IMG/VR virus record: IMGVR_UViG_3300031555_004728
Location: 192,001 to 256,000 of that record
Source of the DNA: a virus
Taxonomy: Duplodnaviria > Caudoviricetes
Reading direction: 5' to 3' (one strand)
DNA: 64,000 bases
Below, one piece after another: positions 1,347 through 47,076 of the stretch (position 1 is its first letter; each line of letters begins with the position of its first letter). Made by a program: the position numbers and the translations under genes. The notes under the pieces were generated by a model, which was not told the DNA's origin, did no database searches, and saw nothing but the letters and a program-made list of their open reading frames with translations.

Positions 1347-1428
1347 GAACCAATTTTGTTAAGTTAACTTTCTCTAGTTATCGATAATTTACGAAGAATA
1401 CAGAAATCTTACTTAACAAAACTGCAAC
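1347..1428 (+). repeat. 82-bp palindromic cassette-leader repeat, copy 1
   Basis: GAACCAATTTTGTTAAGT...ACTTAACAAAACTGCAAC; five further copies in the window. Confidence 0.95.
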
Positions 1429-1824
1429 CAAATAACATGCCAGATATATCATTATTCTGTTGATGGTAATAATCCTTTAGGTATACCTTGGGGTTGTTTT
1501 ATATATAAATATTCCAATGGATTAATGATGATATCTGCTTGGCAAACAGTTAGTGATATTCCTGTATCATCATCATGGGGATCTTTATATTCATCTGCCA
1601 GAATTGGTGGGATTGCATACGGATATCAATCTAATACATGGGTACCAGTAACATTTAAAAATGTATTTTTTGAAATTGCATGGTCAAACCACCCGAACCT
1701 ATTAACATTGGGAGGTGGAGGATTTTATCATGAACAAACACAAGATATATATCTTGTATCTGCTGTAAATATTCCAGATGTTGATGCTACTATATATTAT
1801 CATACAGTAGGTATATGGAAATAA
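1417..1824 (+). CDS. tail-fibre tip cassette 1, no 5' start codon (gp53-like C-terminal domain)
   Basis: Frame open from QNCNQ in the repeat; YKYSNGLMMISAW...YHTVGIWK resembles gp53-like fibre C-termini. Confidence 0.65.
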   Translation, partial: QNCNQITCQIYHYSVDGNNPLGIPWGCFIYKYSNGLMMISAWQTVSDIPVSSSWGSLYSSARIGGIAYGYQSNTWVPVTFKNVFFEIAWSNHPNLLTLGGGGFYHEQTQDIYLVSAVNIPDVDATIYYHTVGIWK

Positions 1825-2755: not shown

Positions 2756-3097
2756 TTAAAATCCTATTACTAAATAACTGATTTTATATGTACTATCTTC
2801 TGAAAGTGATCCATTAAAATTCCATCCTTTAATATTAACCTTAGTTCTCTCTATAGTACCAACACCCACATTTATAATTGTATCAATATACTCATTTCCT
2901 GCATTTTTTGTAACACTAACAAATGGCTCTTGTGTATAACTAACAGGATATGTCAACTGTCCTTGAAGTATCCACTCTGATATTGGGACAATATCAATAT
3001 ATCCAAAACATATTTTAAGACCATTTTCAAATATTAAATATCCTGATGTTCCATCTTCAAGTTGTTTTCTATATTCTATAAGTCGATTGCAGTTTTG
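2756..3097 (-). CDS. tail-fibre tip cassette 2, no 5' start codon (gp53-like domain)
   Basis: QNCNRLIEYRKQLEDGTSGYLIFENGLKICFG...TYPVSYTQEP...SYLVIGF*; matches the GY..F.NGL..xG / YP..Y...P / Y..IG pattern. Confidence 0.75.
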   Translation of the reverse strand, partial: QNCNRLIEYRKQLEDGTSGYLIFENGLKICFGYIDIVPISEWILQGQLTYPVSYTQEPFVSVTKNAGNEYIDTIINVGVGTIERTKVNIKGWNFNGSLSEDSTYKISYLVIGF

Positions 3098-3167
3098 TTA
3101 AGTAAGTTTTCTGTAATCTAAGGAAAATCTCGATAACTAGAGAAAGTTAACTTAACAAAATTGGTTC
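3086..3167 (-). repeat. 82-bp palindromic cassette-leader repeat, copy 2
   Basis: Reverse-strand copy, same length as copy 1. Confidence 0.95.
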
Positions 3168-3207
3168 CACTTCCTTATTATTTTCTTTTAATTATTTATA
3201 TAAATAA

Positions 3208-4012: not shown

Positions 4013-5287
4013 TTATTTTGTTTTATGAAGTCTTCTAAGTTCAATATATGCTAATATAGAGAAATCTCCATTACCTGTTGTATTTACAAATTTAAATACA
4101 GTTTTACTTAAAAAATAAGTTCCTTTATATTTATTAGTAAGTTTTTGGTCTTCAAAAACTAATGAAAATTTCTTATTTGGTGTTAAAGCGGATACATCAA
4201 CGTCACTAATCATACCTGATATAATTAATGAGTTTGATGATGTTTGAGCTGTAAATGTGGTATTAAGCCATTCATTTTCACCTTCATTTTCAATAATTGC
4301 TACATTAGCATCTCCATTAGTAATTGTATTACTAGTAGATTTACTTGTATTTCCAGTAGATGTGTTTATAACTAAAGCATCACTACCAGTTAAAACATCT
4401 CTAGTAACTGATTTATTACTAATTTTTATTTCATCATAATTCCAATTTATATAATGTCTATTATCATTACTTTCAATACTTCCTATACCTGAATTTTCTA
4501 CACTTGTTAATTTTGGTATATAAATACAAGTTTCAGTTTTCTCACCATTTTCAAATGCTGTACATCCACCTTTAAAATTCAAAATATAAGTTCTATCAAT
4601 ACCAAAAAATATAACAGAACCGTATTTATAAAAACCATACATTGCATCTAAATGTAATAGTTGTTTATTTATGGTTAGTGGTGGTAATAAAATTTCTTCA
4701 TAAGTTCTATTATTTTCTAATGGACTTACTAAAGCATTTTTAATCTTACTAATACCAAATAAATATCCTATTACACTAGATAATGTAACATTTTTAAGAA
4801 TATTATTTATTTGGGTTTTTACTCCTGTAGATGTTTCTTCCCTGTACAAGAATAACTCTAATGGATAATCATACATTTCAAGTTCATCATCTGAATTAGA
4901 TTTATTTATTTTTTCTTGTAAGTCTAAATCATCATCTCTTGATATGTCCATTGTATCATCTATTATTACAAAAGTATCATTTATAAAATCTTTATACATA
5001 GATTTTTTATTACTTCCATATAATTGATAGTATTTTTGTAATCTAAGTTTAATTTTCACTTCAGTTTTATTATTAAGTATTTTATAGTATGTACTGCTAT
5101 CTAAAACTAAATTTAATTTAAAAATAGGGAATGTGTTATTAAAATAATCATTCACTAATTCAATACCAGTAACACACATTTTATCTAATTGAATTGCTTC
5201 ATCATTGACTAAAATTATACATGAATATATAGAATATCTCCATGATTGTAATTTGGAAGAATCAAATAACGCCATGATTAAAGTCAC
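4013..5287 (-). CDS. putative baseplate hub/tail-associated structural protein
   Basis: 424 aa; C-terminal LTPNKKF...YKGTYFLSKTVFKF resembles hub/late-control-D C-termini (weak). Confidence 0.4.
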   Translation of the reverse strand: MTLIMALFDSSKLQSWRYSIYSCIILVNDEAIQLDKMCVTGIELVNDYFNNTFPIFKLNLVLDSSTYYKILNNKTEVKIKLRLQKYYQLYGSNKKSMYKDFINDTFVIIDDTMDISRDDDLDLQEKINKSNSDDELEMYDYPLELFLYREETSTGVKTQINNILKNVTLSSVIGYLFGISKIKNALVSPLENNRTYEEILLPPLTINKQLLHLDAMYGFYKYGSVIFFGIDRTYILNFKGGCTAFENGEKTETCIYIPKLTSVENSGIGSIESNDNRHYINWNYDEIKISNKSVTRDVLTGSDALVINTSTGNTSKSTSNTITNGDANVAIIENEGENEWLNTTFTAQTSSNSLIISGMISDVDVSALTPNKKFSLVFEDQKLTNKYKGTYFLSKTVFKFVNTTGNGDFSILAYIELRRLHKTK

Positions 5288-5336
5288 CTTCCTTTCAAAA
5301 AAATATCACTTAAGGTAATGTGCCTTAAGTGATATC

Positions 5337-6425
5337 TTAAATTGTAAGTTCTTCAAGCATAAATCTATGCTCATAAAATCTTGTTGAATTGAGTTGTAAT
5401 AAACCATTATGATCAAACCTATCTACTAACTGTGATTCAACAGAGTGAATTTGTTCTTTTGTAAGTTTACTATACATAGTTTCCATATCCAAACAATTAA
5501 AATTACATATTACATCTTCTTGTAGTTCTTCAGGAAAAATACTTGAAATAGTTTGGATATTAGTTGTATTTATAGTTATCTTATTTTCTCTTAATCCTTG
5601 ATTAAGAAGTTTTAATAAAGTTATATTTCCTATACCTGGTATTTTTTCAACTGCTCTATATTGCTCTCCAAGTACAGAAAATAATAACATATAAAATGAT
5701 TTATTACAATATAAATTTAGTTCTTCATTATAATCTCCATTTGGTTTATTCAATAATGATGATAAATGTCCTTTTAAATCTCCACTTGTTGTTGATTTTA
5801 TAGGACTACGTCTAAGATAGTGACAAATATAATTTGGTATTAACGAATACTGAGTATCTACGTATTCTCCAGTCACTAATAAATTTTTTCTACTTTTATC
5901 CAAATTACCAATTATAAGAGGAACTAAAGAACTATCAAAACCTTTAGTAGTTATAAAATAAACACCCTTAATATAATTACAAATTGCTTGTGTTTGAGGT
6001 ATTATGGTATTTTTAAATTTTTCTGACATCTCCATATATTTTGGATTCTTTGAATATTTAACTGTATAATATGACCTAAAATCAGGATTAATTTCCGTTT
6101 CGTTAAATTTATCTTCTGAATAATCTGTCATATATAGATACACTCTTGTATCTAGGTTGTTTCCTCTAAAAAACTTTCGATAATGTGCAGCTAGATTTAT
6201 AATATTAGATATAATATTTTCATTAAAATCTGTGCACGAATAAACTTTTCTGTCTACATCTTTTATATTAGATAATAATCTAAGTATAGATTCTAGATTA
6301 ATAAATACATTTACTTTATCAGTCGGTTGTAAAAAATTTAACTCGTCCAAACTTTGATCGTATGTTGCATATTTAATCTTCATCACATTAAAACAAACAG
6401 AAAAGGAATCAAATTCATTCATCAT
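5337..6425 (-). CDS. 5'-3' exonuclease / T4 RNase H-like (FEN family)
   Basis: Helix-hairpin motif EKIPGIGNITLLKLL; size fits; acidic motifs look degenerate. Confidence 0.6.
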   Translation of the reverse strand: MMNEFDSFSVCFNVMKIKYATYDQSLDELNFLQPTDKVNVFINLESILRLLSNIKDVDRKVYSCTDFNENIISNIINLAAHYRKFFRGNNLDTRVYLYMTDYSEDKFNETEINPDFRSYYTVKYSKNPKYMEMSEKFKNTIIPQTQAICNYIKGVYFITTKGFDSSLVPLIIGNLDKSRKNLLVTGEYVDTQYSLIPNYICHYLRRSPIKSTTSGDLKGHLSSLLNKPNGDYNEELNLYCNKSFYMLLFSVLGEQYRAVEKIPGIGNITLLKLLNQGLRENKITINTTNIQTISSIFPEELQEDVICNFNCLDMETMYSKLTKEQIHSVESQLVDRFDHNGLLQLNSTRFYEHRFMLEELTI

Positions 6426-6529
6426 AATGATTACCGTTCCTTTTATAATATTATCAAAAAGTTTTAACGTTAGAAAAATAGTATGACAAGATCAATTTCA
6501 TGACCTTGTCATACCAATTATTTCATAAC

Positions 6530-7237
6530 TTATTTATTCACATGAGTTTGTTTTACAATTCTAAGAATGTCTGAAACATTGTCTTTCTTTTGTTTCTTCG
6601 GTTCTTTTGTAACGAAGTACTTGTAATTTTCATGTGAAATTCTTTCGACCTTTTCAATAACTGTAAAGTATCTTGGAACACCCTGTTTTGTAACATCGTC
6701 ATTACCAGTTTTAATCATATCACTGATGACTTTAATAGGGTCAATTAAGAAAACAACTGACTTACGAGAAGAGTCATTTGATTTCATAATCTTTGGTGAG
6801 CATAGACCTGCTATCTCACTAGCCATTCTTGATGTAAGTGACAGGTTCTTTTTAAGAAGTCCTGAATTTAAGAATGCTTTCTTATCATCTTTTGTATAGA
6901 TGAATGATAATAATGCATCCCAGATTGGCTTTTCAATTTTTGACACGTTATCATTACTTTCGTCTTTGAAAATGTCATAGATTCCTTGACCATTAGCACC
7001 TCTGCTCTTAATTGCTTCCTCTGGAAGAACGATCATCATAGGAACAAATTTCTTAGTCCAGTCAATTGACACAAGGCTAATTTGTACATCTGGTATATCA
7101 ATACCATTTTTACGTGCTGTACTTGTAAAAGTATTCAGTCTTTTTTGTAGAAAGTCTGCTACTTGAGATGTAGCAATTTCAAATTTTTCGACAGTTTCGA
7201 CAGGTTGAAGTCCTGCCCTGTTACCGTTATTGGACAT
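6530..7237 (-). CDS. hypothetical protein
   Basis: ORF with AGGAGG RBS and TATATTAT motif upstream. Confidence 0.75.
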   Translation of the reverse strand: MSNNGNRAGLQPVETVEKFEIATSQVADFLQKRLNTFTSTARKNGIDIPDVQISLVSIDWTKKFVPMMIVLPEEAIKSRGANGQGIYDIFKDESNDNVSKIEKPIWDALLSFIYTKDDKKAFLNSGLLKKNLSLTSRMASEIAGLCSPKIMKSNDSSRKSVVFLIDPIKVISDMIKTGNDDVTKQGVPRYFTVIEKVERISHENYKYFVTKEPKKQKKDNVSDILRIVKQTHVNK

Positions 7238-7369
7238 ATCTAAGTCCTCCTTTTATAAAATATTTTTTTATTGATAAATAGATTAAATCTATTATATCTA
7301 AATTAATAATATACTCTCAAAAGTATAAAATCAATTTTCTTAATTTGATGTTTCGTATCGTATTTATTT

Positions 7370-7834
7370 TTATACTGATGAAGCAAATCCTATTACACCT
7401 GTTAAAATAAACCAATTTAAAATTATTAGCAATATATGTGCAATCTGATCACCTAGTAGTGAAATCTTATATTGGTTTGCTTTCATATCATCAATTGCAT
7501 AATGAGAATATGTTGCTGCGAAAAGTAATAAAGCAGTAATCATTATTACATACCAATCATTCATACACACAGGATTTATTAAAAATCCGTAAACTATTAT
7601 AGGTATAAAAACCATAATAGAATTTTCTAATGAATGAAGAAACAATGCTACTTTATAATCACTTTGATAAAGTTCGTCTGGATAATTTTCTACCCACCAT
7701 GATTCTTGTTTCATATAACAGAATTTACCTTGTAATACGAAGTCATCGATGATATGCATCAATATCATCAAAAATAGTATATAAATACTGTCTGCTCTAA
7801 TCATATCATCTACCTCCTCACATAATAGAAACAA
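7370..7834 (-). CDS. DUF3307-like membrane protein
   Basis: HIIDDFVLQ...H...HYAIDDMK...DQIAH motifs with hydrophobic segments; true start probably ~7803-7806. Confidence 0.7.
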   Translation of the reverse strand: MFLLCEEVDDMIRADSIYILFLMILMHIIDDFVLQGKFCYMKQESWWVENYPDELYQSDYKVALFLHSLENSIMVFIPIIVYGFLINPVCMNDWYVIMITALLLFAATYSHYAIDDMKANQYKISLLGDQIAHILLIILNWFILTGVIGFASSV

Positions 7835-8216
7835 ATATTGGATATGTTAACCAACTAAGTAAACCTATCCATGTTGTAATTTTAAATTGTTCCTTAGTAT
7901 CACTTGTGTATCTTATAGTTTCAATAAATAAAGCTACATTGGTGAAAATGTAAATTAGTGTAACTATAATTGTGTATACATCCAAAACATTTTCTATTGT
8001 TGTTAAACAGAAGTATATAACAACTAATCCAAATGTAAATAATAACCATTCGATACTTGCTAATAAACAATCTCCAAATTTTTCAACTTTGCTTACTTTA
8101 TAAATATTAAAGTCTAATTCTCTAACTTTAGAAGTTGCAAAACTTGTCAAAATAATACATAAAGATAAAATTATGTATCCTGGAATATGTGGTATTAATA
8201 ATCTTATAACGTCCAT
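7818..8216 (-). CDS. membrane protein (about 4 TM)
   Basis: Hydrophobic segments; abuts neighbouring genes. Confidence 0.6.
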   Translation of the reverse strand: MDVIRLLIPHIPGYIILSLCIILTSFATSKVRELDFNIYKVSKVEKFGDCLLASIEWLLFTFGLVVIYFCLTTIENVLDVYTIIVTLIYIFTNVALFIETIRYTSDTKEQFKITTWIGLLSWLTYPIFVSIM

Positions 8217-8602
8217 TATATAATCACTCCTATCTGTTTAAGACTTATAAATGTAATCGCCCATACTACAAATGATAATAAAAGTAATTTTTTATATCTT
8301 CGTTTAAAAGATATTTCTTGTATTATAAATACTCTATGAACTAAAAATACAATGCACCATAATATTAAATGCATAATTGTAAAATATGTTGATACAGAAG
8401 GTTTTATATATACAGCTTGTACAATTGATATCATAAAGCAACTTGATAATGTATATTTGATACTATATAAATTAAGTTTTAATCTAGTACCTTTATTAAT
8501 AGCAGTTTCAACATTAATTATTGATGCTAAATCCATCAGTATACTAATAAATATAAATCCACAAAGCCATAAAATACCTTCCATAAAATTTAATCTTACC
8601 AT
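8216..8602 (-). CDS. membrane protein (about 4 TM)
   Basis: Hydrophobic segments; AGGAGG RBS. Confidence 0.6.
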   Translation of the reverse strand: MVRLNFMEGILWLCGFIFISILMDLASIINVETAINKGTRLKLNLYSIKYTLSSCFMISIVQAVYIKPSVSTYFTIMHLILWCIVFLVHRVFIIQEISFKRRYKKLLLLSFVVWAITFISLKQIGVII

Positions 8603-8843
8603 TTTTGACCTCCTTTACCATTTGTAGGTGGGAATAATTGTGATATAATAACAACTAACATCACAATCAAAAACCATGTTGAAGCTGTATTATTCATCAC
8701 ATTTATCTCCTTCATTTTCATCAGTATTTTTAGAATTGATTAATTCTAATTCGTATCTAATATCACCTAATTTATCATTTATTATATATAATATGAATAC
8801 TATTATTCCTAAACAAATATAAATTATTTCTTCATGTTCCATA

Positions 8844-10052
8844 TTAATCATTCATCTCCATTTCTATAAGTTTCATGACATCTGTATGTAAATACATATC
8901 TATTTGCTCCCCTCCTAATTCCTTTCCATTTAAATCTTTGATATATGTATTTAAAACTTCCCCAACAGATAGATTCTTATTGAGTATATAGTCATACTTA
9001 AATAATATATCTTTTAAAGCCGATTCGTCAGTTTGCTTTTTCTTTGATATATATCCATTTACAAAGTCACAATGAACTCCATTTAAATTTCTGAAATTCT
9101 CTCTCATAGTACTTATAAAAAATTCTGGATTTGGGTAATCTTCTGGTATATTGAAAATAAGTCTTGTACTTTTATTATCACTATTTTCAATTAAGTTTCT
9201 TAATGTCTTTAAATGATTTTCAAGCATTTCTTCTGATGAAAAAATTTCATGGTCGTATCCAAATATATGAGTTTTAAATTTTGGAGCATCATAATTCTCG
9301 TGAAATTCCGATGAATAATGAGGTTCATCTTCTAAATCACAAATTATTTCATAATATCCCTTTGGTTCTTCTTCACCATGTATCCAACGAGTAAAACTTC
9401 CAACATAATGGACATAATCTTGAATTACTGTATGTACATGGTAATGACCGAAATAAACTTCACCTTTACAGCATTTCTTAAAATCTGCTGTAGTAAATAC
9501 AGCTGGTTTAAGTCTACTATCTTTATCTTTTTTATTTTCTCTTTTAATCATAGTCATTGCTTCAGCAATTACACCATGACCAAATATATAATCATATTTT
9601 TTCTTTTGACTGAAGAACTCTTTATAGTATTCATCTTTATCTTTAATATACTCTTCAGGAAGATACAAAACTTGCATTCCTGGAAGTAGTTCTTCTTCGC
9701 AAACGGTTTTAATAATTTTAAAATCTAAACCTTTCATATTTTCATAAATAGAAAATATATGGTACTGATCTACTTCATGTGATTCTGTACCATAAACAAT
9801 TCGTATACATTTTGTATATTGGGTTAATTTATTCATAAGCCATAATCCTGCATCACTAGCACGATTGTTTAAGAATATTTTCTTATCCCAATAATCACCA
9901 TCTATAATTATAAAGTCAAAATAATATCTAGTGTCCAAAAGATTAAATAGATTAGTTCTAAGCTCTTGTTTCATTTCATCAACATCTGTTGCTCCGAAAT
10001 GTATGTCCGCTAGAACTAATCCTCTATATTTTTTACTCATAACACTATCCAT
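8844..10052 (-). CDS. SbcD/Mre11-like metallophosphoesterase nuclease
   Basis: ADIHFG, GDYWD, GTESHE, FGHG and FGHYH motifs. Confidence 0.8.
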   Translation of the reverse strand: MDSVMSKKYRGLVLADIHFGATDVDEMKQELRTNLFNLLDTRYYFDFIIIDGDYWDKKIFLNNRASDAGLWLMNKLTQYTKCIRIVYGTESHEVDQYHIFSIYENMKGLDFKIIKTVCEEELLPGMQVLYLPEEYIKDKDEYYKEFFSQKKKYDYIFGHGVIAEAMTMIKRENKKDKDSRLKPAVFTTADFKKCCKGEVYFGHYHVHTVIQDYVHYVGSFTRWIHGEEEPKGYYEIICDLEDEPHYSSEFHENYDAPKFKTHIFGYDHEIFSSEEMLENHLKTLRNLIENSDNKSTRLIFNIPEDYPNPEFFISTMRENFRNLNGVHCDFVNGYISKKKQTDESALKDILFKYDYILNKNLSVGEVLNTYIKDLNGKELGGEQIDMYLHTDVMKLIEMEMND

Positions 10053-10142
10053 CCTTTGCTATTTATTCTTAATTTTTTGTAAATAGAAAAATATTATTTT
10101 ACTGAAGATGTCATGAATTTAATAAAGAAAGGATGGTAATAA

Positions 10143-11168
10143 ATGTTTGATGTACATGAAAGAGACAGACAAGAAATTGACACGATTTTGGATAACCTGA
10201 AAAAGCAGGGCAAAATTGATTTAGAACTTAAAGGTGATAATGAAAGACAACTTTTCCAAGACCAATTTCACCAGCAAGCAATTCAGATGGGATTATTACA
10301 ACAACCCAGTTCTGAATTTGCAAGTTCGTATAATGTACTTAGAGAATTTTTACTTAGTAAGAAATTTGAAAATCTTTCTAGTAATACTTTAAAAATTTAC
10401 TATAATACGATTTTCAATTTTATTGAACAAATGGATGAAGGTAAGACTCTATTTGATGTCAAGACTGCTGATATCAGAGCTTATTTAATGCACTATCAAG
10501 ATGAACATAAGTGTTCTAGTCTAACTATAGATAATATGAGAAGGTGTTTCTCATCATTTTATAATTGGCTAGAAGATGAGGATTATGCTATTAAAAACCC
10601 GGTTAAAAAGATAAAGAAAATAAAAAGTGATAAAGTTATAAAGAAACCATTTAGTCATGAAGAATTGGAAATGATTAAAGATGCTTGTAGAAACTATAGG
10701 GAATTATCACTTATAGAGTTTCTGTATTCTACAGGTATTCGTGTTAGTGAACTTTGTGGACTAGATATTTCAGATTTAGATTTTAACCAAAGAGAAGGTA
10801 TTGTATTTGGTAAAGGTAGCAAAGAACGTGTTATATATTTTGATGTTAGAAGCAAAGTCCATTTATTACGATATTTAAATACAAGAGTCGATAATAATCC
10901 GGCATTATTTGTTACTAAGAAATATCCATTTAATAGATTAGAAAAAAGCGGTGTCGAATCTATTATAAGAGAAATAGGTAAACGTGCTGGAGTGGAAAAA
11001 TGTCATCCACATAGATTTAGAAGAACATTTGCTACTAACCTTCTCGATAGAGGGGTTCCTATCGAGCAAGTACAGATTTTATTAGGTCATAATAAAATAG
11101 ATACTACGTTATTATATGCTACAGTAAATACACAATCAGTTAAATTAAATCATGACAGATTCGTTTAA
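10143..11168 (+). CDS. tyrosine recombinase (XerD-like, N-terminal SAM-like domain), candidate cassette recombinase
   Basis: Catalytic residues: TGIRVSE (R), GKGSKER (K), HPHRFRRT (HxxR), LLGH (H), TTLLY (Y). Confidence 0.92.
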   Translation: MFDVHERDRQEIDTILDNLKKQGKIDLELKGDNERQLFQDQFHQQAIQMGLLQQPSSEFASSYNVLREFLLSKKFENLSSNTLKIYYNTIFNFIEQMDEGKTLFDVKTADIRAYLMHYQDEHKCSSLTIDNMRRCFSSFYNWLEDEDYAIKNPVKKIKKIKSDKVIKKPFSHEELEMIKDACRNYRELSLIEFLYSTGIRVSELCGLDISDLDFNQREGIVFGKGSKERVIYFDVRSKVHLLRYLNTRVDNNPALFVTKKYPFNRLEKSGVESIIREIGKRAGVEKCHPHRFRRTFATNLLDRGVPIEQVQILLGHNKIDTTLLYATVNTQSVKLNHDRFV

Positions 11169-11179
11169 TTAGAAAATAA

Positions 11180-11212
11180 AAATGACTAGATAGAAAATCT
11201 ATCTAGTCATTT
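11180..11212. terminator. bidirectional terminator between convergent genes
   Basis: AAATGACTAGATAGA / TCTATCTAGTCATTT inverted repeat flanked by A and T runs. Confidence 0.75.
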
Positions 11213-11224
11213 ATTTTTTTAATA

Positions 11225-12130
11225 TTAGAATGTGATATCAATTGCTTTAACAGCTTCGATTGTTTCAGCATTTCTAATTTCAACTTCAATTTCCTGTTGT
11301 TTAGATACTAATGGTCTAACAACTGCTTCAATGTCTGCAGCAAGAGCCTGAAGTTCATCTAATGTCCAGTCATATGTACATACTTCTCCAGTAGCATTCC
11401 ATGATGGAGTATATTCTGGATTTAATGATGCCATCATAATAACTGCCATAAGTTGTGATTGTTTTTCTTGTGTCATACTGTATTCAGCTTCAACACCAGC
11501 ATGTGCTGTAGATTTAACAGTATTTGTTGCAAGATAATTTGCAAGATTAACTTTGCTTGTTGCAATTCTGTAATCTTTAAGACCTTCAAGATCAAGTTCA
11601 TCTTCATCAAGAAGATTAAGTTGTGTCTTGATAATGTCAATATCACTTGCATTACTTGTAACAGTTTCATTATATTTAGCCATTTGAGCTAATGATTCTT
11701 TAAGTTCAGTATTAGCTGTGCTCAAAGTTTCAACTTTACCAGCAAGTGTCTTATTTTCTCCTTGAAGTGTATTAACAAGATCTTCAAGAGTTGCAATCTG
11801 CTCTGGGATTGTTGTAGAGAGGCTCATCTTAGCTTCTAATACTTCAACTTCTTCACCATCAATTTCAACAAATGCTGTTGAGATTTGTTCTAATACAGTA
11901 TAATCATTGATTGTACGAACTTCAACTTCATTTTCATATACTGTAAGAACTGCAGTCTTTAATTCATCCTGACAGATAGCTTTTACTGCTGCAATTGTAT
12001 CAATTTCTTTGCCAAATGTAAAGCAAATAACTTTTTTACTAACGCCTTTTCTTTTAAGAATTGATTCAAAAGGAAGGGCTGCAAGAGGATATGCAGTAGA
12101 GTCATTTGTGACTAATTTATACATACTCAT
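11225..12130 (-). CDS. coiled-coil protein with C-terminal DUF4376-like domain (tail-fibre associated/chaperone)
   Basis: C-terminal W..T...WTLDELQALAADI...QQEIEVEIRNAETIEAVKAIDITF pattern; central heptad repeats. Confidence 0.6.
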   Translation of the reverse strand: MSMYKLVTNDSTAYPLAALPFESILKRKGVSKKVICFTFGKEIDTIAAVKAICQDELKTAVLTVYENEVEVRTINDYTVLEQISTAFVEIDGEEVEVLEAKMSLSTTIPEQIATLEDLVNTLQGENKTLAGKVETLSTANTELKESLAQMAKYNETVTSNASDIDIIKTQLNLLDEDELDLEGLKDYRIATSKVNLANYLATNTVKSTAHAGVEAEYSMTQEKQSQLMAVIMMASLNPEYTPSWNATGEVCTYDWTLDELQALAADIEAVVRPLVSKQQEIEVEIRNAETIEAVKAIDITF

Positions 12131-12297
12131 AGTAAATTATACCTCACTTTCAAAATTTTAAATAATTAATTTTTAATTACTTTTTCATTTATTGAAATGT
12201 TTCATTTGATGAGAATAGATTAATAATTTAAAAATATATTATATTTAAGTATAGACTATATAATAATACTATTTCTAAAAAAGAAGGGAGTATACAA

Positions 12298-13107
12298 ATG
12301 AGTATTAAAGAAGCAAAAAAGAAAGCAATTAAGAGACAAAAAAGAGAAGAACTTGGATATAAGTTCAGATGTGTTTTAGCAACACTTATTATGATTTTAT
12401 TGGTATCTGGTACATGTGTTGGTGGAGTTGCAATCGTTATTGCATCTGCTAATTCCGCACTTGAAGATATTAGTAAATCAATCGTCTCAAACGAAAATGA
12501 AACTAAAAGTGTAAAAGAAAAAGAAGAGAAAGAAATCATTGAAACTGTAGCAGCTATTGATACTATCTCAGATAAGACAAGTGAGGTTGAAACTGCAGTA
12601 GACGTCAATGAAGAAATTCATCAGGTACATTATGAAAAAATGAGCAAAGAAGAAATTGTATCTGAAGGATTATCACAAGATGAAAATGTAGCACAAAGAA
12701 TGACTATCGACCATAATACAATGTCTATACTTATTCGAGTAGTCGAGGCTGAAGTTACAGGTTCGTCATTCAGATACAAAGGAAATGATGTAAGTTATGA
12801 TGAATTATTAAAATCTAAAATTAGAGTTGCTCAGGTATTCATGAATCGAGTCGAGGATCAAGGTGAATTTAAAAATATAACATCATTATATCAATCACTT
12901 ACATATCCAGGAGCTACATCTACATTTGGTGATGGAAGATATTATAAAGTAGAAATTACTGACATTACTAGAGAAGCTGTTAGATTAGCTTTAAGAGCAG
13001 ATACACCTGATTATACAGATGGTGCATTGTTCTTTAATAGTGGCACATCTTGCAAATATGGTTCATACCTATTTACAGATGCTGTCGGACATTCATTCTA
13101 TAAATAA
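12298..13107 (+). CDS. membrane-anchored SleB/Hydrolase_2-like cell-wall hydrolase
   Basis: N-terminal TM; RVVEAE, VAQVFMNRV, DYTDGALFF, GHSFYK. Confidence 0.75.
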   Translation: MSIKEAKKKAIKRQKREELGYKFRCVLATLIMILLVSGTCVGGVAIVIASANSALEDISKSIVSNENETKSVKEKEEKEIIETVAAIDTISDKTSEVETAVDVNEEIHQVHYEKMSKEEIVSEGLSQDENVAQRMTIDHNTMSILIRVVEAEVTGSSFRYKGNDVSYDELLKSKIRVAQVFMNRVEDQGEFKNITSLYQSLTYPGATSTFGDGRYYKVEITDITREAVRLALRADTPDYTDGALFFNSGTSCKYGSYLFTDAVGHSFYK

Positions 13108-17067: not shown

Positions 17068-17149
17068 GAACCAATTTTGTTAAGTTAAATTTCTCTAGTT
17101 ATCGATAATTTACGAAGATTACAGAAATCTTACTTAACAAAACTGCAAC
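17068..17149 (+). repeat. 82-bp palindromic cassette-leader repeat, copy 3
   Basis: Two substitutions relative to copy 1. Confidence 0.95.
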
Positions 17150-17542
17150 CAACAAGAAATTTCTGAAACTTTAAACTATAGAAATGCTTATATAGAAGTA
17201 TTAAAAAATGATGATCAGACAAATACTACAATAACACCTGGTACAGATACTACTTTAAATATGTTTACAATACCTAGTACTGGCATATATTTTATAGTAG
17301 CATCCATAACTGCTACTAGTAAAGAAGATAATAAATATTTAATATTTCATTTGATTAAAACAACTTCAACAGGAACATATTGGACACCTATAGAACTTTG
17401 TGATAGTGGTTCTTATACAAGACTTTCAGGTTCTTGTATGGTTCCACTTGATAAAGGTACTATTTTAACACTTAAAGCAAGTACAAATAATTCAAGTAAT
17501 TTAAGTGTTAGTTATCGTTTTAGTATAGTAAAATTAGTATAA
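17138..17542 (+). CDS. cassette 3, no 5' start codon (C1q/BclA-like beta-sandwich, putative fibre tip)
   Basis: QNCNQQEISETLNYRNAY...FTIPSTGIYFIVAS...LDKGTILTL...FSIVKLV*; FT.P..G.Y and L.KG motifs. Confidence 0.6.
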   Translation, partial: QNCNQQEISETLNYRNAYIEVLKNDDQTNTTITPGTDTTLNMFTIPSTGIYFIVASITATSKEDNKYLIFHLIKTTSTGTYWTPIELCDSGSYTRLSGSCMVPLDKGTILTLKASTNNSSNLSVSYRFSIVKLV

Positions 17543-18143: not shown

Positions 18144-20897
18144 TTACATAGATTTTCTATCAGCTATTTCAGCCATTTTTGCAGCATTGAGTCTAGTATC
18201 GCCATGAACTCTTGAATATGATAAATATCCATTCATTCGTTCTATGGAAAGTATATGTTTAGAACCACATTTTGGACATACATCCATAGCAACACCTTCT
18301 TTACCACAATCTTCACAATAACAAAGAGTAAAATTAACACCTTCATACAATCCCATTTTCATAGCACGCCTTACGAAAGCTCTAATTGCATCTTTGTTAT
18401 AGTTAATTCCATATTTTACATATTGAATTCTTCCACCAGCACTTAAATTCCAGAATCTATATTCTTTATCTTGTTTTTCAATTCCATCCATTTCTTCACT
18501 TACATGACAATGGAATGAATTACTTACATATTCTCTATCAGAAACATTTTCCACAATACCATATTTTTGTCTAAATTGAGTAACTTGTGTTCCACATAAA
18601 CTTTCTGCTGGAGTTCCATAAATCGCATAAAGAATACCATCTTCTTTTTTAAACTCATTAATTTTATCGTTAATGTGTTGCATAACTTGTAATGGAAATT
18701 CTCCATCTTCACGAATAGATTTTCCATTATGTAATTGATTAAGTTCATTAAGCGCAGTAAATCCATAACTTGCTGTAGCGTATTTTAATAAAGGTTTAAT
18801 TTTTTCAGATGGATCTAAGAAACCATTATGAAAGCCACCTTGACAAAATGCTACAGGATTAGTACTTGCTTTAATATTAGATAAATATTCATATGTCATA
18901 ATATGAACTTCTCTAATTAATTGGAGATATTCATCTAAAACTTCATAGAAGTCTCTGTCTTCTTGTTTAGCTTTAGCATAAATCATTGGTAAGTGAAGTG
19001 ATACTACACCAATATTAAATCTTCCAGTGAAGAATGGTTTATCATTCTCATCTGCAGGATACATTCCACCACGTTCATAATATGGTGAAAGAAAAGCTCT
19101 ACAGTTATGAGAATCAAGTTCATTAACCATAAATCTGTCTGATTCTGTAGTGAAGTCATAACTGAATTTTCTTTGATGGAAAATTTCAATTTTTTCTACT
19201 TCAAATTCAGTATACATTTTGTAATCTGTAATACCAACTATTTTATCTCCTACTTGTATATTTTGTGCTTCAGTTCTTCCTTTTCCAATTATTGGAAGTG
19301 GATGATCAAAAGTACACATAAGTGATCTTTCTCTCGAACTGAAGTATTTTGTATCTTTAAAAGTGATTTTAATCCATTCATCAGTAACATTTCTGATTAC
19401 TCTATGAACTTTAACAAATTCATTTTTATTGATATCATATGTATAAAGATTAATAGGATCTGCATAAAAATCCCATTCTCTTCCTTCTTGTAATTTTACA
19501 CCAAACTTGGTAGGAATATTTCCAAGTTCGATTTCTTCCCAAAGATCTTCAAATGTATAATTAATATATTTATTATCATTATCATCTTCAGGTTTATTTT
19601 CTTTAATTCTGATTCTAGCAGAACCATCAACACAGCCCATAGGTGCAATAATTTCACCGTATTTATGCCACATTTCTGCTACAGTTGTATCTCCATCAAG
19701 AGATAAATAATCAGGATACATAGCTTTTGATGAGCAATCTAATGCTTCTTCAAAAAGCCATTCCAATTCTTTTCCCGGTCCATGTAAATCCTCAGTATAT
19801 GTAAATACTAATTTAGGGAAAAGAACTGATTTCTTTTTACCTGGTGCTCCTTGCCCTTCTTTTCTAACTTTAAGACAAATAGATGCTGCTAAACTAGCAA
19901 ACTTATCTGTTGAAACACCGATTGTGAATGTAGTAAATGGATAATCTCCTCTACTACTTGCTACAGTATTAAGTTTAATTTCAAGACCTTGGAAACCTTG
20001 TTCCATATCTCTTATAACTTTTGCCATTGCTTCATCTTCTGCTTCTTTAAATAATAGTGCTTTCATTTCATCTGTAATTTCAACACCTATAGTACTTAGA
20101 GCAGATAATAATGAATTAAGTTTTGATTCATAAATACCACTTTTATATTTATCAAAACTTAATTTAGCATATTTGGATACTAACTCATCAATACGTGGAA
20201 CTGTAAAACCACCGTATTGCTGACTTGCTGCGGATAAAATAATATCACCGATAACGTCAAATGTCGTATCGAGTGATTTTGGTTCATTATACCAGAGATT
20301 ACCCATCTCAAATCCACCAGTTAAAACAGTTTTAACATCAAAAAGACAACAGTTGATACCGTCTCTTCGAGAACTCATATCATGAATGTAAATATATCCA
20401 TCTCTACATGCCTGTAACATCTTTTTATTTAACTGGAATTTTTGGTATAATTCTTTGTTAAGTTGTCCAAAAATAAGACTACGTTTAGTAGATACTAACG
20501 TAGAATCTGAATTTGCATTTTCTTTATCACCGATATACATAATAGCTTGTGCTTTTTTATAGATAGAATCTATCATTGCGACAAATGAGGTTTTGTAATC
20601 ACGATAGTCTCTATAACTTTTTGCTACTTCAGGTGCAATTTCTTCTAACACTTTTTCTACTATATTATGCATCATTGGTACGGTTATATATCCATTACCA
20701 TCTTCTTCTTTTACCCAGTATTCTTTATTATGAATACTTTCATTTGCAAATTCTTTAATACGTCTAATTTCTTCATCAGAGAATTTATAAAGAACTCTGA
20801 ATGCAGATTTTTTAACAGCATTAATGATCTTATCTACATTAAAAGGCTGTATCGTATTATCCTTTTTAATAATATAAATCATATCATAAACCTCCAA
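18144..20897 (-). CDS. nrdD: anaerobic ribonucleoside-triphosphate reductase with ATP cone and intein
   Basis: N-terminal ATP cone; YIHDM, NCCLFD, PMG|CRAFL, YGTPAESLC, CxxC...CxxC and glycyl-radical RMNGYL motifs. Confidence 0.95.
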   Translation of the reverse strand: MEVYDMIYIIKKDNTIQPFNVDKIINAVKKSAFRVLYKFSDEEIRRIKEFANESIHNKEYWVKEEDGNGYITVPMMHNIVEKVLEEIAPEVAKSYRDYRDYKTSFVAMIDSIYKKAQAIMYIGDKENANSDSTLVSTKRSLIFGQLNKELYQKFQLNKKMLQACRDGYIYIHDMSSRRDGINCCLFDVKTVLTGGFEMGNLWYNEPKSLDTTFDVIGDIILSAASQQYGGFTVPRIDELVSKYAKLSFDKYKSGIYESKLNSLLSALSTIGVEITDEMKALLFKEAEDEAMAKVIRDMEQGFQGLEIKLNTVASSRGDYPFTTFTIGVSTDKFASLAASICLKVRKEGQGAPGKKKSVLFPKLVFTYTEDLHGPGKELEWLFEEALDCSSKAMYPDYLSLDGDTTVAEMWHKYGEIIAPMGCVDGSARIRIKENKPEDDNDNKYINYTFEDLWEEIELGNIPTKFGVKLQEGREWDFYADPINLYTYDINKNEFVKVHRVIRNVTDEWIKITFKDTKYFSSRERSLMCTFDHPLPIIGKGRTEAQNIQVGDKIVGITDYKMYTEFEVEKIEIFHQRKFSYDFTTESDRFMVNELDSHNCRAFLSPYYERGGMYPADENDKPFFTGRFNIGVVSLHLPMIYAKAKQEDRDFYEVLDEYLQLIREVHIMTYEYLSNIKASTNPVAFCQGGFHNGFLDPSEKIKPLLKYATASYGFTALNELNQLHNGKSIREDGEFPLQVMQHINDKINEFKKEDGILYAIYGTPAESLCGTQVTQFRQKYGIVENVSDREYVSNSFHCHVSEEMDGIEKQDKEYRFWNLSAGGRIQYVKYGINYNKDAIRAFVRRAMKMGLYEGVNFTLCYCEDCGKEGVAMDVCPKCGSKHILSIERMNGYLSYSRVHGDTRLNAAKMAEIADRKSM
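19104..19634 (-). mobile_element. mini-intein (177 aa) in NrdD
   Basis: Starts CVDGSARI, block B CTFDHPL, ends YDFTTESDRFMVNELDSHN before C(+1) of CRAFL; no LAGLIDADG motif. Confidence 0.9.
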
Positions 20898-20956: not shown

Positions 20957-21038
20957 GAACCAATTTTGTTAAGTTAAATTTCTCTATTTCTCGATAATTT
21001 ACGAAGAATACAGAAAACTTACTTAACAAAACTGCAAC
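20957..21038 (+). repeat. 82-bp palindromic cassette-leader repeat, copy 4
   Basis: Same length and arms as copy 1. Confidence 0.95.
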
Positions 21039-21356: not shown

Positions 21357-21438
21357 GAACCAATTTTGTTAAGTTAACTTTCTCTATCTTTCGATAATTT
21401 CCTTTGATTACAGAAATCTTACTTAACAAAACTGCAAC
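21357..21438 (+). repeat. 82-bp palindromic cassette-leader repeat, copy 5
   Basis: Tandem after cassette 4. Confidence 0.95.
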
Positions 21439-27710: not shown

Positions 27711-28367
27711 TTAAATTGCCCAATATCCATCTACTGATATTAAACCTTCAATTTTATTAGTATTATCATATCCAGAACCACTTACTGTATAACATAATAA
27801 TGCAAATCCAGTGTCCCATAATTCTCTTATATAATAATTTTTTACAAACCACATTCCACCATGCAACGTAAACTGTGGACAGGCATTATAAATATTAAAT
27901 GGATAAAGACATGCTGTTGATGGTGTACCTGCACTATCTGATGTTGCACCATTAATACCTGATGCTACACACCATGCTTTACAATAGCCATTTTGATATT
28001 TTATATAATTCCAGTTATTTATTTTACCGCTTTCTACCATAGGATTTTCACGAGCCCACGGTTCAAATTTACGTACAACTGTAACACCATCAGAGTCATG
28101 CATTGTTAAATATGCTCTTCTATATACTCTTCCATTAATAGTTGTGAATTCTTGAAATTTATATATCCATGGAGATCCAGGTGAATTGAATGAACCGTTT
28201 CCATCATAAACCATAAGTCTACCAGCAGAAACTTGTGGGAGATTTAAACATGTTTCTGCCTCAGTATTTCCTTTTACATAATATATACCACTATCTAAAA
28301 CTGTATTAATATCAACATTTTCTAAGTATCCTTTAATAATAACAAGATTTTGAGAGTTGCAGTTTTG
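27711..28367 (-). CDS. tail-fibre tip cassette 6, no 5' start codon (pyocin-knob-like plus gp53-like domains)
   Basis: QNCNSQ...DINTVLDSGIYY...NLP..SAGRLMV...QEF...VYRR, then ESG...WNYIKYQNGYCKAW...VDGYW. Confidence 0.75.
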   Translation of the reverse strand, partial: QNCNSQNLVIIKGYLENVDINTVLDSGIYYVKGNTEAETCLNLPQVSAGRLMVYDGNGSFNSPGSPWIYKFQEFTTINGRVYRRAYLTMHDSDGVTVVRKFEPWARENPMVESGKINNWNYIKYQNGYCKAWCVASGINGATSDSAGTPSTACLYPFNIYNACPQFTLHGGMWFVKNYYIRELWDTGFALLCYTVSGSGYDNTNKIEGLISVDGYWAI

Positions 28368-28437
28368 TTAAGTAAGATTTCTGTAATCTTCGATAATTCT
28401 CTAAAGATAGAGAAATTTAACTTAACAAAATTGGTTC
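28356..28437 (-). repeat. 82-bp palindromic cassette-leader repeat, copy 6
   Basis: Reverse-strand copy. Confidence 0.95.
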
Positions 28438-44009: not shown

Positions 44010-45416
44010 GTGAATACATTGAAAGTAGGATTATTAAATACTGAAGAATTTATTTCAGTAAATAATCTTAAGGAAATAACATCACCTGTTATGTTCCAAA
44101 GAGGAAATAACCCTCATCCAGAAGGTCTCTTTAGTACTGAAATTTTTGGTATGACACCAAAAGATAGAAAAGAGACTTTTGCATATATTAATTTAAATCA
44201 TGTATTCCTACATCCTCATATTTATAAGATAATGAAACGATTTTTTAGAAACGTTGAAAAAATAGTTAATGGTTCTTCTTATTATCAAATTAATAGTGAA
44301 GGACATCTTGTTTTATCTGATAATATTAATGGGGAAACAGGAGTTCAATTTTTATATGATAACTGGGAAAAGATTAAATGGGAATATTCTGATTCACCGT
44401 CAAGAAACGAAAGAATTGATGTTGTGACAAAAAGTAAGAAATCAGAAGTTTTCATTTCAAAACTTATAATCATTCCACCATTTTATCGAGATGTAACATC
44501 ATCATCAGGTGGAGGACAAATACCAGAGATTAATAACTTTTATGCAAATGCTATTCGTTTATCTTCTATATTAAAAGAAAACGATTTATTTAGTTTTAAT
44601 CTCTATTCATCTCAATATGCTATACAAGAATTACTTGTAGAGACATATGATTATTTTAAAGAAAAACTTCAATCTAAAAATGGTTTACTTAGAAAATATC
44701 TTATGGGTAAAAACGTTGACCTTTGTACAAGAGCTGTTATTACAGCAGCATCTTTCCATGCAAATAGACCTGAAGATATGCAGATTAATCTTAAATATAG
44801 TGGTGTTCCTATATCACATATTTTATCTCTATGTAATCCATTTATTATGACATGGATTAAAAATTTCTTTGAACGTGAATTAATGGATCCAAGTGAAAAG
44901 CATTTAATTGATTCTAGAACTGGGAAGGTTGTTGAATTAGTTGAACTTGCTAATCCTGAACTTATTTTTACTGATAAAGAAATTACAAAGAAAATGAATT
45001 CATTTATTAAAGATCCAGATATGAGATTCAAGCCAATTGAAGTTCCTCTTAAAAATGGAAAAACTTCATATCTTTTATTTCATGGTAAAAGATATGATAT
45101 GAGAAATAAAGATGAAATTGCATCAATTGCTAATAGAAAGATGACATGGACAGATGTATTTTATATGGCATGTGAAGATGCAGTTAAAGATAAACATGCA
45201 ATTATTACTAGATATCCTTTGATTGACCAGTATGGTCTTTTTGTTACTAGAGTAACTACATTGAGTACATCAAAAACTGTACCTATGCAAGTTGGTGAAA
45301 CTTTATATCCATATTATCCAGATATTGATTTATCTGTACCAGATAGTAAAGTTCCTACTTTATTTATAGATTCAGTTATGTTCTCTAATAGTTATCTTCC
45401 TGGTATAGATGGTGAT
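44010..45416 (+). CDS. phage multisubunit RNA polymerase beta'-like subunit, exon 1
   Basis: GLFSTEIFG, IIPPFYRD, KNGLLRKYLMGKNVD..RAVIT, TRYP; ends GIDGD. Confidence 0.9.
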
Positions 45417-45699
45417 TAACAAAATAGTTACCTAACCTCTTTAATTGCTGGAAACTCCTTAGAGTCTAAACTACCAAAGTGTAACAATGTTTAGAATTGG
45501 ACAATCAGCAGCGAAGCTTCTTATTATAAGAAGAACGTTCAACGACTATCGAAAGCATAACATAAGAGAAAGACTTATGTGAAGAAGTGAGTAGAGTAGG
45601 ATTTATAATCCGAAATGGGAGGCAATATTAATTTGGTAGTAGAATTAATATTGAAGATATAGTCTGAACTTTATAGAAATATAGAGATTAACATAGTTG
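45417..45699 (+). mobile_element. group I intron (283 nt, no homing endonuclease ORF)
   Basis: P AATTGCTGGAAA, Q AATCAGCAG, R GTTCAACGACTA, S AAGATATAGTCT; P1 pairs exon GGTGAT with GTTACC (U-G at splice site); ends in G. Confidence 0.92.
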
Positions 45700-47076
45700 T
45701 ATGACGGTGATCAAACTACAGTAAAAATTGTATGGACGCAAGAAGCCAATAAGGAATGTGAAGAAGTTATGAATAGACCATCATTCTTTGTAAGAATGGA
45801 TGGTTCATTAGTAAGGTTTGTTGAAATAGAAGCTATTCAGACATTCTATAATATGTCTAAAGAACCTTCTAGATCTAATAAAACTTTATCTATTCCAGAA
45901 GTTCATAATTTAACAAAATTAACACCAAATGATATCACATTCGATTTACTTATTGATTTATTTGGTCATATTGGTGGTAAAAAACCTAAATATGAACCAG
46001 AAGATAAAATGATTATTCCAGTTGGAGAGTATTATAATAAAGAACCTATTGAAACTACAGTAGGAAGATTTATCTTTAATAAAGCTCTTATTGAAAAATC
46101 TGGTATGGTTAAAGTACTTGGATATATCAACGATGTTTTAACTGAAGGATATTTCCATAATAAATTAGAAGGTAAAATTGCTGTTGAATTAATTGAAGGT
46201 AGAATTACAACAGACCAAATGTATACTTATGTTGATACTAGAGACTGGTTATCACTTCAATTACATGCATTAATAACACCTTCATTCACACCAAATACTA
46301 TAAAGATTCATCCTGAAGTTCAAAAACTTAAGAATGAATTATTTAAGAAATATGAAAAAGAATTAGCAAGTGGTAATGCTATTATAGCATCACAAATAGA
46401 ATCTGAATTGATTAATAAAACCAAAGAAGTATTAAAAGATGATATTGGAATGGATTTATATGTTTCTGGAGCTCGTGGTAGTTTAGGAAATAACTATAAA
46501 AATATTGCACTTATGAGAGGTGCGGTTTATAATCGTGCTACTGGAAAATTTGAAGTTGTTAAGAATTCATTAAATGATGGTCTTGCAGTAGAAGATATTC
46601 CTATTTCATCAAATACAATTCTTGAAGGAGCCTATCCTAAAGCTTGTGGTACGAGAGATTCAGGATATATATCTAAAAAATTACTTGCTGAATGTCAGAC
46701 TGAGTTTTTAGGAGATAAAGATTCAGATTGTCATACTAAACGTGGAATTAAAATAAAATTAGAACCTGGTATGGCTAAAAACTATATTTATAGATATATC
46801 ATGGTTAATGGTAAACCAGTTAAATTAACTGCAGATAATATCGATAAGTATATAGGAAAAGAAGTAGAACTTAGAAGTCCAATGACATGTATTAGAACTG
46901 AAAAAGGTGAGATTTGTAATGTATGTGCTGGAGATTTCTATTATATGGTAGATAATAGAGCTATGGGATTATCAGCATCTCGTATTGGAAATGCTCTTAC
47001 AAAATATAATATGAAAAAATTCCATGATAACGTTATTAAATACACTGATGTTGATTTGGATGATTTATTAATGTAA
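45700..47076 (+). CDS. RNA polymerase beta'-like subunit, exon 2
   Basis: Splicing restores DGDYDGDQ; TTVGRFIFN, SGARGS, TRDSGY, DC...LRSPMTC...ICNVCAG. Confidence 0.9.
   Translation, partial: YDGDQTTVKIVWTQEANKECEEVMNRPSFFVRMDGSLVRFVEIEAIQTFYNMSKEPSRSNKTLSIPEVHNLTKLTPNDITFDLLIDLFGHIGGKKPKYEPEDKMIIPVGEYYNKEPIETTVGRFIFNKALIEKSGMVKVLGYINDVLTEGYFHNKLEGKIAVELIEGRITTDQMYTYVDTRDWLSLQLHALITPSFTPNTIKIHPEVQKLKNELFKKYEKELASGNAIIASQIESELINKTKEVLKDDIGMDLYVSGARGSLGNNYKNIALMRGAVYNRATGKFEVVKNSLNDGLAVEDIPISSNTILEGAYPKACGTRDSGYISKKLLAECQTEFLGDKDSDCHTKRGIKIKLEPGMAKNYIYRYIMVNGKPVKLTADNIDKYIGKEVELRSPMTCIRTEKGEICNVCAGDFYYMVDNRAMGLSASRIGNALTKYNMKKFHDNVIKYTDVDLDDLLM

Follow-up and report, generated by a model that had tools for sequence, protein, structure and literature searches.

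A Xer-like recombinase and dispersed hairpin repeats that probably switch the receptor-binding tip of one tail fibre in a jumbo phage

What does a lone tyrosine recombinase do in the genome of a jumbo phage? The gene that raises this question lies in a 64,000-nucleotide stretch (the window; genome positions 192001-256000) of IMG/VR record IMGVR_UViG_3300031555_004728, here called G000. An earlier note, made from that stretch alone, had proposed that its product is a shufflon-type enzyme acting on 82-bp sites and not a lysogeny integrase. The record is a complete virus genome of 275,512 bp with direct terminal repeats, that is, a terminally redundant jumbo phage, with a GC content of about 27% and a DNA polymerase just 26-28% identical to the polymerases of AR9/PBS1-type Bacillus jumbo phages and of Staphylococcus jumbo phages. 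For comparison there are G001, a second complete jumbo phage of 278,849 bp, and metagenome contig JAEIGA010000180.1, a relative of G000 at about 95% identity. Through programmed rearrangement of its DNA the phage probably varies the tip by which it binds its host. We think it likely that the enzyme is the recombinase in a 'shufflon' that is dispersed over the whole genome and exchanges the receptor-binding tip of a single tail fibre. That the enzyme acts on the 82-nt sites, and not as a lysogeny integrase, is the best-supported reading of the locus: the recombinant junctions, the gene's place as the sole PF00589 match, its orthologue in G001 and the tree of its relatives all speak for it, and the link between enzyme and site is one that we infer from sequence.

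What are these sites, and how many are there? The repeats reported in the earlier note are real, with six copies in the window and, in the whole of G000, 35 full copies and one 23-nt remnant, on both strands and spread from 29.5 to 220.4 kb of the genome (about 190 kb). The full copies are 90-100% identical to the reference copy (17068-17149), and 35 of 35 end in the same 11-nt core, AAACTGCAACC (read N-C-N). The repeat is a long imperfect hairpin with folding z-scores of -1.7 to -5.2 (the minus strand of the reference copy gives -5.2), its consensus has stop codons in all six frames, and a G-rich, Shine-Dalgarno-like tract always lies 5' of it (mean 5.6 G per 10 nt, against 1.4 expected). The recombinase gene lies between copies 3087(-) and 17068(+). 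It had been placed 'inside the cassette field'; as a local field this description fails, for the system spans about 190 kb and the switched fibre gene is not in the window. In JAEIGA010000180.1 three hairpin copies have a common loop sequence, unlike the G000 variants, and the repeat sequences suggest homogenisation within each genome.

What follows each repeat? In all 35 copies the frame that begins CAA-AAC-TGC-AAC, within the final 12 nt of the repeat, is open over 90-276 codons, and the other two frames close within 4-31 codons. An ATG, GTG or TTG falls within the first 10 codons in just eight of the 35 cassettes; 22 have no start codon in their first 20 codons, and four have none throughout. 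Upstream of the repeat, no consistent open reading frame (ORF) or start codon was found in the 35 copies and three frames. The cassette products are mostly unrelated to each other by BLASTP. Such matches as they have are to C-terminal parts of tail-fibre or virion proteins: phrog_4492, a tail fibre, over positions 788-1039 of 1096 (E 2e-18), weaker tail-fibre PHROGs, and C1q/TNF/BclA_C below threshold. Judged by their reading frames and matches, the cassettes are silent C-terminal units of fibre-tip domains, predicted not to be translatable alone. Two other roles for the repeat were considered and rejected. As an upstream mini-ORF, a ribosome bypass or a split ribosome-binding site it would call for a consistent upstream start or frame, and none exists in the three frames; as an integron-like attC it has the R-box motifs in the wrong order, and the IntI model fails.

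To what are the tips attached? A 481-codon frame at genome 186083-187528 has a C-terminus that one of the cassettes resembles. The fibre gene itself, 186101-187528 (475 aa), has its own Shine-Dalgarno sequence and ATG and lies some 4.5 kb upstream of the window. At the junction of shaft and tip, 101 codons before the stop, it reads GAG-CTA-AAC-TGC-AAC-CTG, and so carries, in the same frame, the 11 nt AAACTGCAACC that stand at the 3' end of each repeat. The 23-nt remnant, from the 5' end of the repeat, stands about 175 nt upstream of the fibre ATG. The promoter region and about 380 shaft codons form an expression module (genome 185925-187235) with 23 nt of the repeat at its left edge and 11 nt at its right; the module therefore occupies the position of the hairpin loop in a normal repeat. 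It lies 15 kb from the recombinase. No fibre relatives were confirmed in IMG/VR, where the exact fibre junction string has no match, and the shaft has no match among GenBank phages; its protein-atlas matches are all below 0.9 and serve as leads only.

Do the cassettes in fact change places? In JAEIGA010000180.1, fibre residues 1-382 match at 95%, and tip residues 376-475 match at 91% elsewhere, on the opposite strand. The shaft in this contig passes through AAACTGCAAC directly into a homologue of the silent G000 cassette c142762, and G000's own tip stands behind a complete hairpin, a reciprocal swap. In the contig, the repeat that precedes this tip has an upstream flank like that of copy 3087-3168 of the window, and every break in collinearity between these two loci of the contig and G000 falls at a repeat.

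The second jumbo phage has a system of the same design. The G000 repeat finds no match in G001 DNA, and G001 has its own hairpin family of 81 nt, with 17 full copies and one truncated; frames of 94-457 codons starting CTA-AAT-AGT-AAx follow 16 of the 17 full copies. The G001 fibre gene carries its own core, CTAAATAGTAA, in frame at the homologous position, with a 5' half-site upstream of the gene. The core differs between the two phages, changing jointly in the repeats and in the fibre gene, and the outer stem is kept: one pair has changed in a compensatory way, and two have become wobble pairs. G001 also encodes an orthologue 73% identical to the G000 recombinase, the only PF00589 match in that genome, and the co-occurrence of enzyme and repeat that the earlier note had proposed as a check is seen in these two lineages.

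Two IMG/VR contigs from other samples, 100.0% identical to G001 on both sides of the rearranged region, show rearranged forms. In IMGVR_UViG_3300018494_000288 the shaft (G001 134576-137342) is joined via the 11-nt core to 153861-156872, so that the partner is cassette c153861, and the intervening 16.5 kb are absent. In IMGVR_UViG_3300018878_000137 51 nt stand in the place of the module (G001 135699-137331) and make up a complete normal hairpin, and this hairpin has a base change unique to r153792 (one of the 17 G001 copies), the repeat of the same cassette c153861. The left and right junctions are exact, with just 18 nt and 11 nt of common sequence; because so little is common, assembly error is an unlikely source of these junctions, judging by usual assembler word lengths. 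Since the junctions in near-identical genomes are precise and reciprocal, the repeats are conservative, reciprocal and precise recombination sites for fibre-tip switching.

Further traces are found in sequencing runs and in gene order. The G000-type phage is present in mouse and bovine gut samples in a sequencing-run listing. All 22 listed runs are assembled contigs, from which no within-sample frequency can be derived, and none of the 22 is an RNA run. Logan contigs from two animal-gut runs (X8 and X12) end or start exactly at the fibre-gene core. In the X8 and X12 contigs the repeat and cassette just after the fibre gene (genome 187529-188012; L038 13630-14113) are replaced by 67 letters, a replacement from which it appears that whole cassette units come and go; runs X7 and X8 have a clean 333-nt deletion at L038 1415-1749. 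Run-contig joints with sides of 20-34 letters were taken to be repeat-induced and were left unused. Between G000 and G001, a repeat is found in 19 of 45 boundaries of syntenic blocks versus 2 of 124 gaps inside blocks.

What sort of enzyme is the recombinase? Pfam assigns it Phage_integrase (PF00589, 127.8 bits against a cut-off of 27.1) and Phage_int_SAM_4 (56.2 bits), with no match to an arm-type domain. The nearest proteins of known structure, judged by sequence, are Pyrococcus XerA 4A8E (E 1e-32) and Escherichia coli XerD 1A0P (E 2e-24); R200, K227, H290, R293, H316 and Y325 fall in the catalytic motifs aligned to these two, and the R-K-HxxR-H-Y set is intact, as first noticed. The best NCBIfam match is NF040815, recomb_XerA_Arch (238.8 bits, cut-off 220). 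The enzyme is below the cut-offs of the XerC (180.9 versus 335) and XerD (170.9 versus 330) models, of the IntI models (TIGR02249, 91.9 versus 265; PRK15417, 52.4 versus 435) and of the FimB/FimE-type invertases (PRK09870/PRK09871, 41.8 and 45.4 bits versus about 221). Among PHROGs it matches 'integrase' families (phrog_1, E 7e-54). The name Rci does not occur among its 12 NCBIfam matches; 'shufflon-type' is apt for the function, the switching of tips, and kinship with the Rci family is no part of what supports it. Across seven Pfam family searches the gene is the sole recombinase of G000: it is the one PF00589 match, and PF00239 (resolvase), PF07508 (large serine recombinase), PF00078 (reverse transcriptase), PF01797 (Y1 transposase), PF00665 (rve) and PF01548 (IS110) have none. 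A site of dif type, with two arms around a 6-8-bp spacer, was not recognised in G000; one arm of the 82-nt repeat may resemble the XerD arm of dif.

Where do its relatives reside? The four closest matches in the GenBank phage collection, at 47-53% identity, are on unannotated human-faecal phage scaffolds, and three of the four (47-50%; L066-L068) have hsdM or hsdS genes beside the recombinase relative, which bears out the likeness to recombinases of phase-variable hsdS loci that the earlier note had drawn. One of them, MT835621.1 (L066), has a complete type I restriction-modification locus at 4026-13057 (hsdM, a partial and a full hsdS, hsdR), in which the resident recombinase is 50% identical to the phage enzyme; about 330 nt of hsdS are duplicated there, and a perfect inverted repeat of 24 nt is present, which bears no likeness to the 82-nt repeat. 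Relatives at 35-40% identity are found directly 3' of N6_Mtase fragments. Homologues at 35-44% (L044-L051) and L037 have no hairpin repeat family within the 10-19 kb of each. In an 18-row maximum-likelihood tree the G000 and G001 enzymes group together (100/100), the hsdM/hsdS-locus recombinases are sister to this pair with weak support (80/79), and Salmonella XerD and a Thermus phage Xer-like protein stand far off on long branches. Of the phylogeny that had been suggested as a check, this tree covers the hsd-locus enzymes and XerD; Rci, Rin and IntI sequences are not among its rows. In PP197244.1 and MW478291.1, from phages of Terrisporobacter and Clostridium perfringens, annotated 'integrases' at 33-38% identity are placed between a holin and a large structural or deacetylase gene, and these may be further tip-switching loci instead of lysogeny genes.

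How might the switch work? The exchange is assigned to the recombinase because it is the sole candidate, is co-conserved in two lineages, lacks an arm-binding domain and is kin to the enzymes of domain-shuffling loci. There are two crossover zones, the 11-nt core at the 3' end of the repeat and 18-23 nt at its 5' end. Recombination at the core would join the shaft to another cassette, and the old tip would be left behind a hairpin. A second exchange, in the 5' arm, would swap the whole module with a hairpin loop, and the module could relocate with no inversion left in the genome. Where two sites far apart undergo one exchange only, large segments would be inverted or deleted, and the scrambled synteny of G000 and G001 fits such events. 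The hairpin would matter as a folded or symmetric binding site, and the tips presumably set host range. A bolder version is that the promoter and shaft form an 'expression site' that hops among dozens of dispersed silent cassettes by double exchange at the hairpin ends, possibly via cruciform or single-stranded folded DNA as for integron attC and CTX phage, giving a repertoire of about 35 tips and continual reshuffling of the genome; we put this forward tentatively, its chances being in our view a little short of even.

Several points weigh against the proposal that this recombinase switches the tip. The system is present in two lineages only, so that co-occurrence amounts to two cases, and support for the hsdM/hsdS-locus sister group is weak. 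The two conserved arms of the repeat are 46 bp apart and face outward, unlike a textbook core site of 28-34 bp, and the fibre-side partner has just 11 nt in common with the repeat. The 16.5-kb loss in IMGVR_UViG_3300018494_000288 may represent a dead-end deletion. No contig was found with the module at its second location in G001, which would be the reciprocal product, and all four IMG/VR contigs with that flank carry the hairpin. That switching is frequent within one population is a presumption, as the runs with the phage are contigs only. Could the cassettes then be exchanged by homologous recombination of phage or host, or by template switching at palindromes, with the recombinase otherwise employed on replication multimers or at an unseen dif- or att-like site? 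Repeats of 82 bp that are 90-100% identical are long enough for homologous recombination with each other, palindromes are known recombination hot spots, and the enzyme, whose binding to the repeats is a presumption, scores above the cut-off of the XerA model. However, the fibre gene has just 11 nt in common with the repeats at one end and 18-23 nt at the other; the junctions are nonetheless exact and reciprocal. The core, moreover, differs between the two phages and the fibre gene differs with it, as expected if strand exchange needs identity and as microhomology would not require. No other site for the recombinase is seen, and its nearest relatives are not chromosomal Xer proteins. We regard exchange by these other routes as unlikely.

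A temperate phage would use such an enzyme as an ordinary lysogeny integrase, and the phrog_1 'integrase' match and the annotation of relatives at 33-38% identity as integrases point that way. This explanation is nevertheless very improbable: the record is complete, at 275.5 kb, and has direct terminal repeats; no match to an arm-type domain accompanies the Xer-type architecture of SAM_4 plus catalytic domain; in G001 the gene has the same position; and in the Terrisporobacter and C. perfringens phages the 'integrases' are found between structural genes and a holin, outside a lysogeny module. The earlier note's report of no repressor, excisionase or att context stands in part: general family scans of ten neighbouring ORFs found no repressor or excisionase family, and no dedicated search was made for these or for att sites. 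One might also suppose that the 82-nt element merely regulates small independent genes, as their 5' leader, promoter or terminator, and has no part in recombination, since it is always 5' of a small ORF in the same orientation, folds stably and has the Shine-Dalgarno-like tract upstream. Against this, 22 of the 35 cassettes lack a start codon within their first 20 codons, the upstream sequence has no consistent ORF or start, and the recombinant junctions lie exactly inside the element; as the sole explanation it is contradicted, and we give it almost no credence. A silencing or insulating role may coexist with recombination, and the hairpin possibly helps to keep the cassettes silent.

The features of the window are collected in the table.

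Table. Recombinase, hairpin repeats and predicted fibre-tip cassettes of the window (positions from the first nucleotide of the window).
Feature	Position	Strand	Basis
82-nt hairpin repeat copy	1347..1428	+	repeat search
Silent fibre-tip cassette, 135 codons from repeat 3' end	1417..1824	+	open frame
Silent fibre-tip cassette, 113 codons	2756..3097	-	open frame
82-nt hairpin repeat copy	3087..3168	-	repeat search
Xer-like tyrosine recombinase, 341 aa; proposed catalyst of cassette exchange	10143..11168	+	Pfam, NCBIfam, alignment to XerA and XerD, tree
Inverted repeat, 22-nt arms, terminator-like, between convergent genes	11173..11219	.	inverted-repeat search
Coiled-coil protein, DUF4376 C-terminal domain, 301 aa	11225..12130	-	Pfam, PHROG
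82-nt hairpin repeat copy, reference query	17068..17149	+	repeat search
Silent fibre-tip cassette, 134 codons; phrog_15750 E 1.8e-5; C1q/TNF/BclA_C sub-threshold	17138..17542	+	open frame
82-nt hairpin repeat copy	20957..21038	+	repeat search
Silent fibre-tip cassette, 100 codons	21027..21329	+	open frame
82-nt hairpin repeat copy	21357..21438	+	repeat search
Silent fibre-tip cassette, 99 codons	21427..21726	+	open frame
Silent fibre-tip cassette, 218 codons; weak tail-fibre PHROG matches	27711..28367	-	open frame
82-nt hairpin repeat copy	28356..28437	-	repeat search

The recombinase and the DUF4376-like gene are convergent, as had been described, across a 56-nt spacer. The DUF4376 match is marginal (27.7 bits against a cut-off of 25), and the product has no PDB sequence match. 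A fibre association had been claimed for this gene, and a weak match to phrog_1348, 'tail fiber protein' (E 1.6e-7), agrees with it; the gene adjoins the recombinase in both G000 and G001, but it lacks a core site, and nothing visible connects it with the switch. Local gene order is kept in G001 (402-aa ORF, recombinase, DUF4376 gene, cell-wall hydrolase). The 402-aa ORF (8844-10052, minus strand), divergent from the recombinase, occupies the same place in G001 at 76% identity. It has no Pfam, NCBIfam, PHROG or PDB sequence match, and its AlphaFold model (mean pLDDT 38.5) is too poor for a structure search; by eye its DxH...GD...GHxH pattern may be that of metallophosphoesterases or Mre11-type nucleases. 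Between G000 and G001 the block 7370-13107, of five conserved ORFs and including the recombinase, is inverted relative to both flanking blocks, and its borders show no 82-nt repeat and no notable inverted repeat.

Other elements of the window are of separate interest. An Rfam scan of the window at gathering thresholds gave a group I intron as its sole match, and the 82-nt repeat matches no Rfam family; a scan of the window for tRNA genes found none. The intron (RF00028, 45380-45686, plus strand; 87.1 bits against a gathering score of 50) is flanked by ORFs 44010-45419 and 45697-47076, perhaps one split gene. About 160 nt overlapping the intron recur at eight places in the genome, with 71-85% identity to a stretch of the G001-like contig, and three G000 ORFs all match one G001 ORF; together these observations suggest several introns or homing elements. 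The anaerobic ribonucleotide reductase NrdD (917 aa; 18144-20897, minus strand) matches NrdD PHROGs over residues 6-422 and 594-916, and the roughly 170 residues between the two blocks look like an intein by their end motifs. An A-rich low-complexity tract of about 380 nt (49940-50320) was a source of spurious repeat families.

What would such a system mean for the phage? What a phage can infect, and how far it can be put to practical use, is limited mainly by host range. If the bolder version above is right, this would be a new mode of programmed rearrangement in a virus, with a repertoire of tips comparable to the antigenic-variation systems of pathogens. In a single phage, about 35 interchangeable tips with a built-in switch would be, to our knowledge, the largest receptor-binding repertoire of its kind. 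It would help to explain the persistence of a large gut phage across mouse and bovine gut samples, and would explain why the genome is scrambled at particular points. A two-zone hairpin site and a relocating promoter module would also extend the known activities of Xer-like recombinases, in a system that is compact: one enzyme, an 82-nt site and an 11-nt partner core.

Is this like anything already known? Several elements of shufflon-like switching are present: a constant N-terminus with start-less C-terminal alternatives, a short core that lies in frame, and breakpoints inside the sites in near-identical genomes. What is not found is a clustering of the segments in one invertible locus beside the recombinase; they extend from 29.5 to 220.4 kb. 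Integron attC x attI recombination by IntI, and hairpin integration of CTX phage by XerCD, act on imperfect-palindrome sites, which in integrons, as in G000, belong to promoterless cassettes. Common to these and to G000 are conserved ends with a variable middle, a partner that has a short core only, and an enzyme of the Xer/IntI branch (SAM_4). Here, in contrast, the hairpin is 5' of the cassette, the cassettes are in-frame domain fragments, and the IntI model scores 91.9 against 265. The vsa locus of Mycoplasma pulmonis, with its HvsR recombinase, likewise has one promoter-bearing 5' segment and many silent, start-less 3' genes, which site-specific recombination joins; it encodes a bacterial surface lipoprotein at one chromosomal locus, whereas the G000 system is viral and genome-wide.

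In the hsdS loci, where the nearest relatives of the enzyme reside, domain-coding half-genes are likewise swapped at short repeats, but the target is a specificity subunit and not a virion fibre, and the loci are local. The R64 shufflon (Rci) joins alternative C-terminal segments to a constant N-terminus by site-specific recombination. That system and the Min, Gin and Cin inversions differ from G000 in being clustered, in proceeding by inversion only and in using short sites, and Min, Gin and Cin are serine invertases, whereas G000 has no PF00239 match. The tail-fibre inversions of p15B, Mu and P1 by Min, Gin and Cin follow the same logic of constant N-terminus and alternative C-terminus, as outlined in PMC6109161.

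A search of the literature, supplements aside, found the Rin shufflon as a parallel and no description of a dispersed cassette system in jumbo phages. In Bifidobacterium prophages, according to the outline in PMC6109161, Rin is a XerD-like tyrosine recombinase that acts at 11-bp rix sites upstream of each of several dissimilar variable C-terminal genes, which share the constant N-terminus of a receptor-binding protein. Rin and the G000 enzyme are both phage-encoded XerD-like tyrosine recombinases without an arm-binding domain, serving a constant N-terminus through an 11-bp crossover, a likeness of design that rests on that description (PMC6109161). As outlined there, the sites of Rin are bare 11-bp sequences, and its few variable genes all lie next to the recombinase in a single compact locus that inverts (PMC6109161), whereas in G000 there are 35 cassettes (17 in G001) over about 190 kb among other genes, 82-nt two-zone hairpins, a relocating module and a recombinase 15 kb from the fibre. 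The logic of the switch is already known from Rin-like systems; what sets G000 apart is its dispersal over about 190 kb, the 35 cassettes, the two-zone 82-nt hairpin sites and an expression module that can relocate.

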